Part shown: positions 1,515 through 9,973 of the stretch, piece after piece
Layout: every line of letters begins with the position of its first letter
Position numbering within the stretch: position 1 is the first letter of the stretch
Assembly (NCBI GenBank): GCA_016432525.1
Contig: CP066693.1
Span: 416,815-480,814, forward strand
Length of the DNA stretch: 64,000 nt
DNA from: Candidatus Woesebacteria bacterium
GTDB lineage: Bacteria; Patescibacteriota; Microgenomatia; UBA8517
Direction: 5' to 3'
Made by a program: the position numbers and the translations under genes
Notes under the pieces: model-generated
What the model was told of the DNA's origin: nothing
What the model saw: only the letters and a program-made list of their open reading frames with translations
The model's database searches: none

Positions 1515-2309
1515 TTATCTATTTCTCTCATTGCTAACAAAAGCAATAGTTCCAATTGAAATAAAAAGCAAAAACATAGCTCCAATTACAACCAAATCAA
1601 TTAATGTACTGAATAAAACTGTTTTTGAATACTCGGCCATACCTGTATAAAAAACAGATCTTACAAGATCAACTGCATAAGTCATTGGCGCAATTCTTGA
1701 AAGAACTAAAAGTGCTGGAGGCAGATTTTTAACTGGTCCAAAAACTCCAGCCAAGAAAAATTGTGGAAAAATCACAAATGGGAATATTTGATTAGCAGCT
1801 CTTTGAGATTTTAAATTTGATAAAACAAATACACCAAAAGCGCCTCCCAGTGCACAAACAATTAATGCAAATGGAGCAAGGCGTAAAAACTCAAAAACAG
1901 TTAAATGCACTCCCATTACAAACCCAAAAAGAAAAACCCCAATCCCTTGGGTTAAAGCAACCAAAGATTCTCCTAAAATTTTCCCAACAATTATTGAGTA
2001 ACGTGATATTGGAGACACAAAAATCTCCTGAGAAAAATCATTTTCTCTATCTTCAATTAATGAAATCACACCTGATGCAGTTGACTGGAAAAGCGTTTGT
2101 CCTAAAACTCCTATAAAAATAAACGTCAAAAAATTATATCCAGCATTTGCTCCCAAATTTGATTGCAAGCTTGATCCCAATATTCCCACAAAAACAAAAG
2201 GAAATATAAAAGTTGCGATAATGCGCCCGCGATCCCTCAAAAACTTTGAAAAATCCCTATAAGCTATAGTTAGTATTGCGTTTACTTCATGCATGGTTAT
2301 TATTCTCAA
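1515..2309 (-). CDS. ABC-2 type transporter permease
   Basis: 264 aa with six predicted TM helices. It overlaps the upstream ATPase gene by 23 nt, consistent with translational coupling. Confidence 0.75.
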   Translation of the reverse strand: MRIITMHEVNAILTIAYRDFSKFLRDRGRIIATFIFPFVFVGILGSSLQSNLGANAGYNFLTFIFIGVLGQTLFQSTASGVISLIEDRENDFSQEIFVSPISRYSIIVGKILGESLVALTQGIGVFLFGFVMGVHLTVFEFLRLAPFALIVCALGGAFGVFVLSNLKSQRAANQIFPFVIFPQFFLAGVFGPVKNLPPALLVLSRIAPMTYAVDLVRSVFYTGMAEYSKTVLFSTLIDLVVIGAMFLLFISIGTIAFVSNERNR

Positions 2310-3228
2310 TTATTTCCAAATAAGCATCTTCAAGTGTAGGATTATGAATATCCAAATAATTTAAAGGTGTCTTTATAGAAGAAATTACTTTTTGAGGATT
2401 TTTGCCTCTAAGATTAATCATAATATTTTCCTTTTCTTCAAAATTAAGTTTTAATTTTTTAAGCTCAGAAATAAGTTTCCTCTTACTTTTTGAATCCACC
2501 AATAAATAATTTTTGATTAATTCCTTTTTAATTTTAGAAGGAGTTCCGGAAGAAACAATTTTTCCTTTGTTAATTATAAACACATGATCAGCTCCTTCAG
2601 CCTCCTCCAAATAATGAGTTGTTAAAAAAATTGTAGTTTTTTCACTCTTTCGAACTTCATTTAAATATTGCCATAAATTTTTTCTTGAAAGTGGATCAAG
2701 CCCACTTGTTGGTTCATCTAAAAATAAAATTTTTGGTTTATGGATTAAACTCCTCATAATTTCAAGTTTTCTCTTCATTCCACCTGAAAAAGTTTTTATA
2801 GGTTTAAAAATATCTTTCTGGATTCCCAAAATCTCAGAAAGTTCATATACTTTCTTCTGATAAGCCTTACTCATAAATCCAAAAGTTGGTGCAAAAGGAT
2901 AAATTCCATACAAAATTGCATGAAATCTGACATTCTCCTCAGCTGTTAAATTCTGGTCTAAGCTTGGATTCTGAAAAATTATTCCAATCGATTTTCTAAC
3001 TTCCTTTTGATTCTTATCTAAATCATATCCAGCCAAGCTCACTTTTCCAGAAGTTTTAGACAGTGTTGTTGTAAGAATTGAAATAGTAGTTGTTTTCCCA
3101 GCTCCATTAGGACCCAAAAAAGAAAAAAACTCTCCCTCTGAAACATCAAATGTGATATCATCTACTGCATTTGTATTTGCTTTGTTGTATTTCTTAACTA
3201 ATCGAGAGACATCAATTATTTTGCCCAT
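2287..3228 (-). CDS. ABC transporter ATP-binding protein
   Basis: Walker A GPNGAGKTT, signature SGGMKRKLEIMRS, Walker B LFLDEPTSGLD, H-loop TTHYLEEA. Confidence 0.9.
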   Translation of the reverse strand: MGKIIDVSRLVKKYNKANTNAVDDITFDVSEGEFFSFLGPNGAGKTTTISILTTTLSKTSGKVSLAGYDLDKNQKEVRKSIGIIFQNPSLDQNLTAEENVRFHAILYGIYPFAPTFGFMSKAYQKKVYELSEILGIQKDIFKPIKTFSGGMKRKLEIMRSLIHKPKILFLDEPTSGLDPLSRKNLWQYLNEVRKSEKTTIFLTTHYLEEAEGADHVFIINKGKIVSSGTPSKIKKELIKNYLLVDSKSKRKLISELKKLKLNFEEKENIMINLRGKNPQKVISSIKTPLNYLDIHNPTLEDAYLEIIENNNHA

Positions 3229-3269: not shown

Positions 3270-4112
3270 TTATATAATAAAACCATTAAGAAGTTTGTCT
3301 GGCCATTCTTTTTTATATTTATCTACAATTATTCTTCCGAAAACTTTCGTAAAATTATGTGGATCGTCAACAATCACAGAGTCCTCTTTCTCAAGATTTT
3401 TATCTTTTTCTTTTTTTGCAAAAATACGAAGCGTGTTAATTTCTGAAACTTTTAAATCTTCCAAAAAATTAACCCAAAATATTTTTGATGCACTATATTC
3501 AACAGAGTATGCAAATAACTCTGACATAAATTGATGCAATTCTCCAAAATAAGGAAAACGAATTTGACCATTAAGAACACTGTCTTCGCCCATTAAATAA
3601 TTGATACTATTATTGATATATTTCAAATTTTCATCTTTATTTGCCAGAAACCATAATTTATGCCTGTTGTAATATATATGTGCATATTCATGAACAATTG
3701 TTGCTATATAACTTTCTTTTGATTTATAAGGAGATTCAACAATCTTTTCATGAATATTTTTAAAATCACTAAATAATGACCCAAACGGTGTTTCATCGTT
3801 TGGCAAAATTTTCTTAATAATCTCATTTATTTTATTTATATAAATTCCTGCGGACCATTTTTTGAAATCTCTAAAACCAAACTCAAAATTGTTTGATAAT
3901 TTATATACATTAATATCTTTTTTTGAAAAAATTTTATCTAATAATATTTTCCTTTCAGAAAAAATATATAAATTATTTTTATCAAAACTAATTGGAGAGA
4001 TGTTTTTTAGAAATTTCTTATCAAAAAAAATATAATCTAATTTAGGATCACGAACAACCAACATTCCTTCGATAATTGCTTCAAAATCAGAATCATTTGT
4101 CATAACTGTCAT
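3270..4112 (-). CDS. HExxH-motif protein, putative zinc metallopeptidase (candidate leader peptidase)
   Basis: 280 aa containing TIVHEYAHIYY (HExxH). It is divergent from the rSAM gene and shares a 74-nt AT-rich intergenic region with it. No signal peptide. Confidence 0.5.
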   Translation of the reverse strand: MTVMTNDSDFEAIIEGMLVVRDPKLDYIFFDKKFLKNISPISFDKNNLYIFSERKILLDKIFSKKDINVYKLSNNFEFGFRDFKKWSAGIYINKINEIIKKILPNDETPFGSLFSDFKNIHEKIVESPYKSKESYIATIVHEYAHIYYNRHKLWFLANKDENLKYINNSINYLMGEDSVLNGQIRFPYFGELHQFMSELFAYSVEYSASKIFWVNFLEDLKVSEINTLRIFAKKEKDKNLEKEDSVIVDDPHNFTKVFGRIIVDKYKKEWPDKLLNGFII

Positions 4113-4201
4113 TTTAGCTTAAATTTATATCAATATGATACAATATCGCTGGTAATAAAATACTATACTAGGTACCTTAACAAAGGTTGAAAGGTTGCAA
4201 A

Positions 4202-5581
4202 ATGAAGAGCTTTCGTCTGAAAGATGGTGTTTTTTTTGTAAAAGGAGCACTGAATGGTGCCCTTTTAGACACTACTACAGGTAATGTCTATTCAATAAAC
4301 CAAATTGCTGTTTCGATAATAACCAAGGAAAAAGAAAATCAAGAATATTGGGAAAAACTTATCCAAATGAAATTGGCTGAAGAATGCTCCGTCGCTAGTT
4401 CATTACCAGACATACCTCGAATGTCCTCAATAAGTTTAAAATTTGTCTGGTTTGAAATAATATCAAACGATTGCAACGAATCATGTATACACTGTTATGC
4501 AGAAAGTATGCCGCCGTCTCATAGAAAAGCACTTGGACTTGTTGATATCTCAGGAGAAAACAAAACAAAATTAAAGCTAACTTATGCGGATTGGGTAAAA
4601 TACATTCAAGAAGCATATGATCTGGGATGCCGAAGATGTCAATTTATCGGTGGCGAACCCTTTGTTTACAAAGAAGGAGACAAAACAGTTCTAGATCTAG
4701 CAAGTTTTGCTAAAGAAATTGGCTATGAGTTTGTTGAAATTTTCACCAATGCGACTTTGCTGACACATGAGAAAATCGACAGAATAAAAAGACTAAACCT
4801 AAACGTTGCAGTTTCATTATATTCTCATGATCCACAGATTCATGATTCAATTACACAAACACCAGGTAGTCATTCGAGGACGGTTCAAAATCTCAAGTCG
4901 TTAAAATTAGCAGGAGTTAAAACTCGTGTAGAAATTGTAATAATGAAACAAAACCAAAACACGATTGAAGAAACACAGATTCTAATTAAAGACATTGGTT
5001 TTAGTGGCAAACATCCTGATCCAATTCGACCAAAAGGAAGGGGAGATAATTTGAGCATTAGACCAGATCCTGAAAAAACAGTCGAATATGGTTACATGAC
5101 AAAGCCAAATTTTACAGCTAACAAAAACACAATTGCACACTATTCAAAAGGTCATAGTTGCTTGGCTGGAAAAATAACATTAACTGATTCTGGAGACATA
5201 CTACCATGCATATTCTCTCGTAATCACATAATCGGCAATGTATTAAAAGTGGCCTCATTGGAGTCGATATTGTTGAGCGAAGCTATGCAACAAGTATGGA
5301 ACACAACTAAAGACAGTGTCCTAGTTTGTCGCGACTGTGAATATCGCTACGTATGCTTTGATTGTAGGCCTCTTTCGGAAGCAGCAGCAAGCGGAAATTC
5401 TGATTATATGCATGCCCCATATCCACGTTGTACACATAATCCATATACAGGAGAATGGGCAAAGGGCACATGGAGAGTAAACGAAAAAGGAGAACCTTGG
5501 TATGATCGATCCATAGAACCCATTATAAATATGGTTATAGAAAAAAGAGGATTTAAATCAACTCAACCTTCTGGTCATTAA
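4202..5581 (+). CDS. Radical SAM/SPASM-domain peptide maturase with N-terminal PqqD-like RRE
   Basis: CNESCIHC (CX3CX2C) radical SAM cluster motif. C-terminal Cys cluster CRDCEYRYVCFDC...C typical of SPASM/twitch domains. The N-terminus GNVYSINQIAVSI resembles the PqqD-like RiPP recognition element. ATG at 4202 is preferred over TTG at 4187. Confidence 0.85.
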   Translation: MKSFRLKDGVFFVKGALNGALLDTTTGNVYSINQIAVSIITKEKENQEYWEKLIQMKLAEECSVASSLPDIPRMSSISLKFVWFEIISNDCNESCIHCYAESMPPSHRKALGLVDISGENKTKLKLTYADWVKYIQEAYDLGCRRCQFIGGEPFVYKEGDKTVLDLASFAKEIGYEFVEIFTNATLLTHEKIDRIKRLNLNVAVSLYSHDPQIHDSITQTPGSHSRTVQNLKSLKLAGVKTRVEIVIMKQNQNTIEETQILIKDIGFSGKHPDPIRPKGRGDNLSIRPDPEKTVEYGYMTKPNFTANKNTIAHYSKGHSCLAGKITLTDSGDILPCIFSRNHIIGNVLKVASLESILLSEAMQQVWNTTKDSVLVCRDCEYRYVCFDCRPLSEAAASGNSDYMHAPYPRCTHNPYTGEWAKGTWRVNEKGEPWYDRSIEPIINMVIEKRGFKSTQPSGH

Positions 5582-5605
5582 CCAACAACATATAAAGGAG
5601 AAAAA

Positions 5606-5866
5606 ATGTCAATAAAAATAATCGAAGAACCAACAATCATTCTAGTTTCACCTCGAATTGTAAACTACTGCGCGCCTGAACAAGGAGATTGTGGTCCAGA
5701 TCACACCTGTTCACCTGATCAAAATTGTTCACCAGATCAAGAAGAATATTACTGCGGACCAGAAACAACAACTTGTGGCCCAGATTTACGAACTCCAGAG
5801 CCTGAGTATACTTGTGGTCCTGAACAAGGAGATTGTGGTCCAGATCACACCTGTTCACCTGATTAG
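5606..5866 (+). CDS. Cys-rich repeat peptide, putative RiPP precursor (9 x C-[AGS]-P-[DE])
   Basis: Strong RBS AAAGGAG 7 nt upstream. An about 20-aa leader-like N-terminus is followed by a core with nine Cys, each followed by x-Pro-Asp/Glu. It lies immediately downstream of the rSAM/SPASM gene. A 42-bp internal DNA duplication occurs at 5683-5724 and 5822-5863. Confidence 0.7.
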   Translation: MSIKIIEEPTIILVSPRIVNYCAPEQGDCGPDHTCSPDQNCSPDQEEYYCGPETTTCGPDLRTPEPEYTCGPEQGDCGPDHTCSPD

Positions 5867-5881
5867 TCATGGACGCATAAC

Positions 5882-5918
5882 CGGTTAGATAATCAAAATC
5901 TAGCCGGTTTTTTATTTA
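5882..5918 (+). terminator. Rho-independent terminator after precursor gene
   Basis: Stem CCGGTTAGAT / ATCTAGCCGG followed by TTTTTTATTTATT. Confidence 0.6.
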
Positions 5919-5922
5919 TTGT

Positions 5923-8854: not shown

Positions 8855-9973
8855 TTAAGCAGCGAGTCTATTTCTTAAATTAATAAGAAGCGGTTCAGGG
8901 TTAACAGTTGAAGTCTGATAACAATTCCAAATTTGACTTTCCCGTGTATTTGATCTTGTAAGTTTATCAACCACTTGATCTGTGTTGTAATCCAAATAAT
9001 CTATTCCAGCTCCACCAGTTCTACTACCGTATTGAGATATCCAGCCATTTTCTTTAGTTAACACATAACAAATTGCTGTTTGCTCAAATCTATCCTCATA
9101 TACTTGTTTTTCTTGATTAAAAACTTGCTTTTTTGGTTTTTCCAAAACCCAAACTTTCATAATTACTTCATCTGTTATCTTTTGGCCATTTTTGATAAAA
9201 GAATATTTTTCATTTTTTGTTTCTGTTCCATCTTTTCCTTGAATCTCAACTACAGCCCCATCCTTTGTGTATCCTCTAAATCTTTTGGCATACATTTTAT
9301 CTCGTGGATCCTCTCTTTTATTTGGATCAAAGTCAGCTCTGATTAATTTAAATTTCCCGGCCTCTCTAAACTCATCTTCTACATATCTAGTGTCATTCCA
9401 AGTTCTTGGTTTATATTCAGCTTTTTCACTTTCGCTTTTCTCGGTTGGTGTTTCTGTCTGTTTTTCCTCTTGTTTAGGAAGTTCTTCTTGCTTCGGTCCA
9501 CTCTTTCTAATTCTGTCAAAAACACCCTCTTTTACTGCTTTTTCATCTACTGATCTAATTGCTCCATCAGCTGTCCATAATTCCACACCATCTTCTGAAC
9601 TTTTATAACCTCGAAAACTCTGAAGATACCAATGTCCATCTCTATCCATCGTGTAGCACTGACTAGTTCCAGATCCTTTTCCATCTTTTTTGATAACCCA
9701 AAAATGAGCCGCGACCTCTCTTGTCTGACCATATATATCTACATGATCCTTTTCTATCGACCCCTTAGTACTTATTTGAATATGAAGTTCTGTTCCATCC
9801 TCTAAAGTCTTGACTCTACGATCATCGAACATTCTACTTGCTCTGTTTGTTGTATCTTGTTTTTTTTCAAATCCAGCCGATGTTGAACCCCAAGCTAAAT
9901 TTGCAATATATTTATCAGCCTTTATTTTTTCAGGTGCCAATTCCTGCATCTCTCTCACCAAATCTGACGCCAT
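8855..9973 (-). CDS. Hypothetical protein with internal duplication and acidic linker
   Basis: 372-aa ORF. Two related segments (YTMDRDGHWYLQSFRGY... and AKRFRGYTKDG...) are separated by a Lys/Glu-rich low-complexity stretch. No recognisable family. Confidence 0.45.
   Translation of the reverse strand: MASDLVREMQELAPEKIKADKYIANLAWGSTSAGFEKKQDTTNRASRMFDDRRVKTLEDGTELHIQISTKGSIEKDHVDIYGQTREVAAHFWVIKKDGKGSGTSQCYTMDRDGHWYLQSFRGYKSSEDGVELWTADGAIRSVDEKAVKEGVFDRIRKSGPKQEELPKQEEKQTETPTEKSESEKAEYKPRTWNDTRYVEDEFREAGKFKLIRADFDPNKREDPRDKMYAKRFRGYTKDGAVVEIQGKDGTETKNEKYSFIKNGQKITDEVIMKVWVLEKPKKQVFNQEKQVYEDRFEQTAICYVLTKENGWISQYGSRTGGAGIDYLDYNTDQVVDKLTRSNTRESQIWNCYQTSTVNPEPLLINLRNRLAA

Follow-up and report, generated by a model that had tools for sequence, protein, structure and literature searches.

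A Cys-x-Pro repeat peptide beside a radical-SAM/SPASM maturase in Candidatus Woesebacteria: a probable RiPP precursor with a family-wide Cys-x-Pro motif

The window analysed here is a 64,000-nt stretch of a Candidatus Woesebacteria genome (contig CP066693.1, positions 416,815 to 480,814). Its forward strand carries a small gene (5606..5866, +; NCBI locus tag HYS03_01725, 'hypothetical protein') encoding a peptide of 86 aa, MSIKIIEEPTIILVSPRIVNYCAPEQGDCGPDHTCSPDQNCSPDQEEYYCGPETTTCGPDLRTPEPEYTCGPEQGDCGPDHTCSPD, followed by the stop codon. The peptide is identical to an NCBI protein of Candidatus Woesebacteria and consists of a leader (residues 1-16, 5606..5653, +; MSIKIIEEPTIILVSP), which carries the family motif E-E-P-T-I-x-L-V-S-P, and a core of 70 aa (5654..5863, +) that harbors nine C-x-P-[D/E] units. 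The initial annotation had described nine Cys residues, each followed by [A/G/S]-P-[D/E], and the translation confirmed them exactly as listed. Nine C-x-P units were reached in none of 200,000 composition-preserving shuffles of the core, and C-x-P-[DE] occurred in the same shuffles 0.30 times on average and four times at most. The core is strongly acidic (15 Asp or Glu vs two Lys or Arg residues). Since only 6 of the 34 residues outside the motifs are acidic, the Asp or Glu found at the third position after Cys (+3) is not explained by composition alone.

A Shine-Dalgarno sequence (AAAGGAG, 5594..5600, +) stands 5 nt before the ATG of the precursor gene, and a radical-SAM (rSAM) maturase gene ends 24 nt upstream of the precursor ORF on the same strand. 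The rSAM-precursor operon is closed by an intrinsic terminator (5879..5919, +) with a 12-bp stem, a 7-nt loop and a T-run, the hairpin of which (5879-5909) starts 13 nt past the precursor stop codon. No second C-x-P ORF was found across the 64-kb window. Within the core, a 45-nt exact direct repeat encodes PEQGDCGPDHTCSPD twice, once at 5675..5719 (+) and once at 5819..5863 (+), where it runs up to the stop codon. The two copies are in frame with an offset of 144 nt, and three of the nine motifs owe their presence to this recent copying; together with an older 36-nt module that occurs three times at 72-83% identity, the copies indicate that the core grew by module duplication. The repeat expansion proposed in the initial annotation is therefore real, although the 42-bp duplication described there (5683-5724 and 5822-5863) has to be redrawn to the extent given above.

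The upstream gene (4187..5581, +) encodes an RRE/radical-SAM/SPASM maturase, as assigned by matches to Pfam PF04055, NCBIfam matches in the SPASM region and AF2/Foldseek. Its ORF opens with TTG at 4187, and the ATG at 4202 is the likely start according to the 459-aa NCBI protein and its homologues, so that the gene encodes 459-464 aa depending on the start. In an alignment of 17 sequences, the intact CX3CX2C motif (C96/C100/C103) and seven SPASM Cys residues (C325, C341, C381, C384, C390, C393 and C415) are invariant, and the SPASM motif closes with an invariant C393-R-P395. None of the NCBIfam models scored above its cut-off or equivalog cut-off: the best of them, the 'grasp-with-spasm' maturase, reached 82 bits vs a cut-off of 175 and matched the SPASM region only. 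The top-scoring models (grasp-with-spasm, AhbD, NirJ2, AlbA and StsB), all below cut-off, include none that is PapB- or QhpD-like, and the SCIFF maturase model was absent from the top NCBIfam matches. The AF2 model of the maturase (pLDDT 74.7) has an RRE-like N-terminal domain of beta-beta-beta-alpha-alpha topology (residues 8-67) and aligns over its full length to the RRE-containing SuiB and CteB. Foldseek placed the RiPP maturases SkfB, SuiB and CteB closest, with 400-470 aligned columns, followed by MoaA, BlsE, anSME (ranks 11-23), PqqE and TigE. At the sequence level, a PDB search retrieved BlsE and a profile search retrieved TigE, SkfB and MoaA; TigE, a cyclopropylglycine synthase, was the best profile match and aligned in the rSAM core only. 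These PDB matches reflect generic rSAM-core similarity and do not tell chemistries apart.

A gene for an HExxH protein and two ABC-2 transporter genes run divergently from the operon. The HExxH protein (type A; 3270..4112, -; 280 aa, HYS03_01735) is annotated with 277 aa rather than 280. Its HExxH motif is joined by a helical Glu further downstream and by a catalytic fold of the thermolysin/M1 type; it is thus predicted to be a gluzincin-fold zinc peptidase, the obvious candidate for leader removal. Neither type A nor a second, type B protein (~250 aa, without BLAST similarity to type A) was matched by any Pfam or NCBIfam model, and type A had no sequence match in the PDB. Homologues of type A adjoin the maturase in 57 related loci, and type B replaces it in 20 loci, including those of the closest relatives of the window (L003, 5659-6429, -; L048, 1976-2710, +; and 18 other loci), with the motif YLxHExLH...EHAVIELAxDNELRIRLNGKGEYF. 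Of the 112 loci, 77 have one of the two types, and many of those left over are truncated contigs. The AplP-like M1 leader peptidases of class III lanthipeptides are comparable, but the partner described here has only 280 aa (the catalytic domain only), lacks a Pfam or NCBIfam match, and is swapped for an unrelated protein in the 20 type B loci. Downstream of the HExxH gene and on the same strand lies a DrrA-like ATP-binding subunit gene of an ABC transporter (2287..3228, -; NCBIfam TIGR01188, 272 bits vs a cut-off of 312), which overlaps a gene for a DrrB-like ABC-2 type permease (1515..2309, -; NCBIfam TIGR01247, 117 bits, also below cut-off). The transporter was rejected as a part of the conserved cassette because it has no counterpart in the related loci. 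On the other side, secA lies downstream of the precursor region; a 372-aa ORF downstream of secA (8855-9973, -) showed no NCBIfam match and only a sub-threshold match to Pfam DUF7711, and the related loci have no equivalent of it.

As a query, the 86-aa peptide itself was uninformative: a word-indexed search retrieved only the peptide, and an exhaustive phmmer search of 1.8 billion representatives retrieved only spurious repeat proteins. Neither NCBIfam nor Pfam had a match for the window precursor, and NCBIfam, with the SCIFF model included, had none for 10 of its relatives. Relatives were therefore found through the neighbourhood of the enzyme. The enzyme search gave 445 proteins at E <= 0.001, with 51-67% identity among the 120 matches listed; among these listed matches, the homologues with a named organism were almost all from Patescibacteria, and the family includes a few Chloroflexota. 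A total of 112 loci were examined, of which 32 were from genomes (chosen via the 17-sequence alignment), 79 from metagenomes and one from the closest homologue. The genome loci represent Woese-, Roizman-, Ames-, Curtiss-, Levyi- and Dojkabacteria, WWE3, Saccharibacteria-labelled bins and three Chloroflexota. The metagenome-assembled genomes of loci L001-L003, L012, L013, L025 and L032 are titled 'uncultured Gammaproteobacteria' or 'Pseudomonadales', and their cassette loci have a GC content of 38-44%; these titles may stem from mislabelled bins or from horizontal transfer. Our literature search, which covered C-x-P or Cys-Pro crosslinks with radical SAM, RiPPs of Patescibacteria and proline ranthipeptides of the CPR, turned up no work describing the family. 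A graspetide survey that mentions CPR SPASM enzymes was set aside, as it deals with ATP-grasp loci and the window locus lacks an ATP-grasp gene.

Nearly all loci with enough flanking DNA carry a small ORF beside the enzyme, and a neighbouring C-x-P precursor is present in about 95 of the 112, usually directly downstream. The leaders of 70 precursors share the consensus E-E-P-[T/E]-I-x-L-V-[T/S]-P, which lies at a median distance of 9 residues from the first Cys, and IIEEPTIILVSP of the window peptide fits it exactly. Because the same leader and C-x-P core recur in small ORFs beside the enzyme, comparison among loci settles that the window ORF is translated and is the substrate of the enzyme. 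The locus and the conserved leader likewise support the initial proposal of a precursor peptide, with a leader and a Cys-rich core, for a radical-SAM/SPASM maturase. The possibility that the ORF arose by chance, or is repeat DNA that is never translated, has nothing in its favor except the overlapping ORFs in other frames, and these alternative frames translate into low-complexity nonsense. It is effectively refuted by the ribosome-binding site and terminator in the window and by the retention of frame, leader and C-x-P across about 95 loci despite extensive DNA divergence. In some loci a single maturase is accompanied by several different C-x-P precursors, two or three in number, of which one is sometimes divergent and upstream (L019, 3364-3573, 5333-5554 and 5536-5721; L048, 2744-2908, -, and 4380-4565, +; L088, 2620-2802, -, and 2822-3064, -). 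A large precursor sub-family has a conserved proline-rich tail past the last C-x-P (…PRPPxPPGPN or …PPKPPGPN), as in L006 (3236-3463), L010 (5435-5647), L049 (1589-1822) and L062 (3902-4153).

Comparison of 80 distinct precursors showed that Pro occupies +2 in 482 of 499 core Cys positions, vs 116 +/- 8.5 in shuffles; the resulting 97% is somewhat inflated, since the precursor set required at least three C-x-P units. Some precursors were found to have only one or two. The +1 residue of the units is free, and none of the other flanking positions is conserved in the 80 precursors. At +3, the 482 units carry D (88), N (70), A (49), T (47), S (42), G (20), Q (20), R (19), E (18), C (16) and others. 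An acidic +3 residue is thus present in 106 units (22%) and is missing altogether from 24 of the 80 precursors. The number of units per precursor varies from 1 to 12, and successive units are 3-26 residues apart, with 11 abutting C-x-P-C-x-P pairs and three peptides that end at C-R-P followed by the stop codon. The near-invariance of C-x-P, together with the lack of it for an acidic +3 residue, identifies the self-contained Cys-x-Pro unit as the family determinant among the precursors compared. Besides the window peptide, only L002 and L003/L106 have Asp or Glu at +3 of every unit; their rSAM enzymes are 65-73% identical to that of the window. The fraction is 0.67 in L001 and L048 (rSAM 65-67% identical), and also in one of the two peptides of L088, whose rSAM is 46% identical. 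By this distribution, acidity at +3 is an overlay specific to a clade, added to the deeper C-x-P motif and concentrated in the closest relatives of the window. The initial annotation had expected conservation of both elements in homologues; this was borne out for Cys and for Pro at +2, but the acidic position was not kept. Inside a sub-family, each successive unit tends to keep its own +3 residue, e.g., N, N, N/F/Y, A and D/E along the peptides of one group. Such a pattern implies that the residue matters, though not in the role of one uniform type of acceptor. The +3 bias towards D, N, S, T and G is the one that a beta-turn led by Pro would favor.

The initial annotation had proposed a Cys-x2-Asp/Glu crosslink, and in a ranthipeptide of this kind each Cys sulfur would be bonded at +3 to Asp, through its beta-carbon, or to Glu, through its gamma-carbon, giving nine small in-line rings in a contracted version of freyrasin. 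Freyrasin (PapA/PapB), the SCIFF CteA-CteB/thermocellin, NxxC and QhpC/QhpD likewise combine a leader and a Cys-rich precursor with an adjacent RRE/rSAM/SPASM maturase. Ranthipeptides also share the short repeated Cys motif, and in the clade of the window the acidic residue stands at a fixed spacing. Acidic +3 residues in 9/9 units of the window peptide and in 6/6 of L002 and of L003, their scarcity elsewhere in the window peptide and the position of Asp as the single commonest +3 residue of the family are in line with this chemistry, and the seven-Cys SPASM domain would be compatible with binding of a substrate thiolate. PapB, moreover, accepts Cys-Xn-Asp with n = 0-6 in vitro and makes Asp as well as Glu thioethers (PMC9413430), a tolerance by which a Cys-to-Asp/Glu link is still chemically possible in the clade of the window, by analogy. 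The spacing nevertheless differs, Cys-x3-D in freyrasin (PMC9413430) vs Cys-x2-D/E here, and the Pro that is invariant at +2 here is not a ranthipeptide feature. Above all, the acceptor is not conserved: 22% of units have it, 24 precursors do without it, and its place is often taken by A, G, T, S or R, or even by the next Cys, or is lost where a peptide ends at C-R-P. None of the curated models scores the enzyme as PapB- or QhpD-like; the ranthipeptide and SCIFF maturase models leave it below cut-off and the locus falls outside the SCIFF definition. A Pro followed by D, N, S or G would also be predicted by beta-turn propensity alone. As the acidic +3 residue is not conserved, and as units abut or end the peptide, the proposed Cys-to-Asp/Glu crosslink is unsupported as the family chemistry and, judging from the precursors compared, cannot be what the enzyme family requires. 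For the window peptide itself we regard the ranthipeptide structure as unlikely.

Two other groups of rSAM/SPASM substrates offer partial parallels. Sactipeptide maturases (AlbA, SkfB and those of the CteB type) are represented by SkfB and CteB among the closest structural matches of the enzyme, and a link from sulfur to C-alpha tolerates any acceptor, which would fit the variable +3 residue. However, sactipeptides have N-terminal donor Cys residues and C-terminal acceptors that form a hairpin; here the Cys residues occur throughout the core and reach its last three positions, which argues against such a topology. Triceptide maturases (XyeB, GrrM and FxsB) are rSAM/SPASM enzymes that form three-residue cyclophanes through a C-C bond, with an aromatic residue at position 1. 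The C-x-P units resemble these by analogy only, being repeated, self-contained modules of three residues with an invariant position 1, a variable middle and a constrained position 3, but with Cys at position 1.

To our knowledge, the anaerobic sulfatase-maturing enzymes (anSMEs) are the only characterised rSAM/SPASM enzymes with a Cys-x-Pro substrate determinant, the motif being C/S-x-P/A-x-R. Acting on Cys within C-x-P and needing no partner residue, anSME and AtsB set a precedent for a self-contained unit, and anSME is among the Foldseek matches of the enzyme. An anSME-like enzyme would abstract a beta-hydrogen of the Cys at each C-x-P and generate a thioaldehyde or a C-alpha-formylglycine, which would result in a poly-aldehyde peptide or its condensation products. 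The substrates of anSMEs are folded sulfatases with one site per protein; here, in contrast, the sites are repeated in a leader-guided peptide, and Arg is seldom found at +4 (11 of about 460 units family-wide) and never at this position in the window peptide. We also know of no RRE or leader system in anSMEs, the auxiliary clusters of which are fully ligated by eight Cys residues, whereas the enzyme described here has an RRE-like domain and seven invariant SPASM Cys residues. anSME was, furthermore, absent from the profile-vs-PDB matches of the maturase at E <= 0.01 and from its top 25 NCBIfam matches. With these differences, oxidation of the anSME type (reviewed in PMC10114670) appears improbable.

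More distant relatives of the enzyme bear on the role of C-x-P from another side. Actinomycete rSAM proteins that are 26-32% identical to the maturase and contain no RRE have C-terminal tails rich in C-x-P, e.g., ...NCAPNMCNPKCGPSCSPACRPQGTRNPCGPRSGCSPNYGSCNPDKTLCNPARNCAPNKCRPTT. Such tails, with 5 to about 13 C-x-P units, were observed in L036-L043 and L046 (e.g., L036, 3860-4945), with L033 and L039 among the bearers; L044 and L045 have no C-x-P tail in the reading frame. The tails often terminate in KCRPT, which recalls the CRP-stop endings of precursors from Chloroflexota. In BLASTP alignments the start of the tail corresponds to the CX2CX5CX2C SPASM segment of the window enzyme. The Streptomyces versions (L033 and L039) have exactly five tail Cys residues, the number that a SPASM domain needs, and about a dozen are present in each of the nine Nonomuraea-type versions whose tails are complete. 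The tails may be fused substrates, in a borosin-like self-modification, variant Fe-S-binding segments, or both. Because they take the place expected for the second half of the SPASM cluster-binding motif, C-x-P may ligate Fe-S, and the C393-R-P395 of the enzyme's own SPASM domain points the same way. On this basis the Cys residues of the precursor could be left uncrosslinked in a Cys/Pro-rich peptide that binds a metal or an Fe-S cluster, with the rSAM enzyme carrying out, e.g., epimerisation, or with the peptide serving as a cluster-bearing partner. This is quite improbable: the conserved leader, RRE domain and adjoining peptidase represent the standard arrangement for a RiPP substrate, and 1 to 12 units at variable spacing are a poor fit to a defined metal site.

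The locus is most readily explained as that of a genuine RiPP precursor whose C-x-P units are modified by the co-transcribed maturase, most likely into thioethers at each unit, a reading that we consider moderately probable. The preference for a thioether as the most likely modification is drawn by analogy, because the rSAM/SPASM RiPP maturases shown to cross-link substrate Cys residues form S-C bonds (PMC10114670; PapB, PMC9413430). Against the thioether stand the sequence of the maturase, which shows no specific closeness to a thioether synthase, and the fact that C-x-P is the core of the anSME substrate motif, in which Cys is oxidised and not crosslinked. In the proposed mechanism, the leader strand EEPTIILVSP would dock on the RRE and the enzyme would work along the core, with the three-residue Cys-x-Pro as its unit of recognition and modification; family-wide conservation points to this unit, and modification of each one is presumed. 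The Pro at +2 would impose a turn that presents the Cys, and a 5'-deoxyadenosyl radical would take a hydrogen atom from a carbon near it. As in CteB, a SPASM domain with seven Cys residues leaves an iron site open for a substrate thiolate. The Cys thiolate, probably held at this auxiliary cluster, would then capture the carbon radical and generate up to nine small rings. The acceptor carbon need not belong to an acidic +3 side chain: since units abut or end the peptide, it would lie within the unit or immediately next to it, and may be part of the Pro ring or a backbone alpha-carbon inside the unit. In the clade of the window, the Asp or Glu at +3 appears to be under selection, be it as an acceptor particular to this clade or as a residue that determines turn and charge. 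The gluzincin-fold HExxH protein probably removes the leader, and the ABC-2 transporter probably exports the acidic product in this genome.

The cassette belongs to an uncurated and uncharacterised family of rSAM/SPASM RiPP systems with a new substrate code, which works like a sactipeptide or ranthipeptide system. A further reading, which we put forward as possible but rather doubtful, is that C-x-P is the three-residue module of a new RiPP class widespread in the CPR, with the Cys tied to the Pro ring or to the backbone within the unit, or converted to formylglycine. If true, either chemistry would be one not described for RiPPs. A Cys sulfur tied within the unit would be a thia-analogue of the three-residue cyclophanes of triceptides, and the actinomycete relatives with C-x-P tails would be self-modifying enzyme-substrate fusions, as in borosins. 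The near-absolute C-x-P rule provides a simple and testable substrate code for an rSAM/SPASM enzyme and, whatever the chemistry, would add a recognisable motif for genome mining and, possibly, a compact tool for peptide stapling. CPR bacteria (Patescibacteria) have tiny genomes and are not regarded as producers of natural products, yet the three-gene cassette of maturase, C-x-P precursor and HExxH protein occurs in Woese-, Roizman-, Ames-, Curtiss-, Levyi- and Dojkabacteria, in WWE3 and in some Chloroflexota. This breadth suggests a function that is important for the episymbiotic lifestyle.
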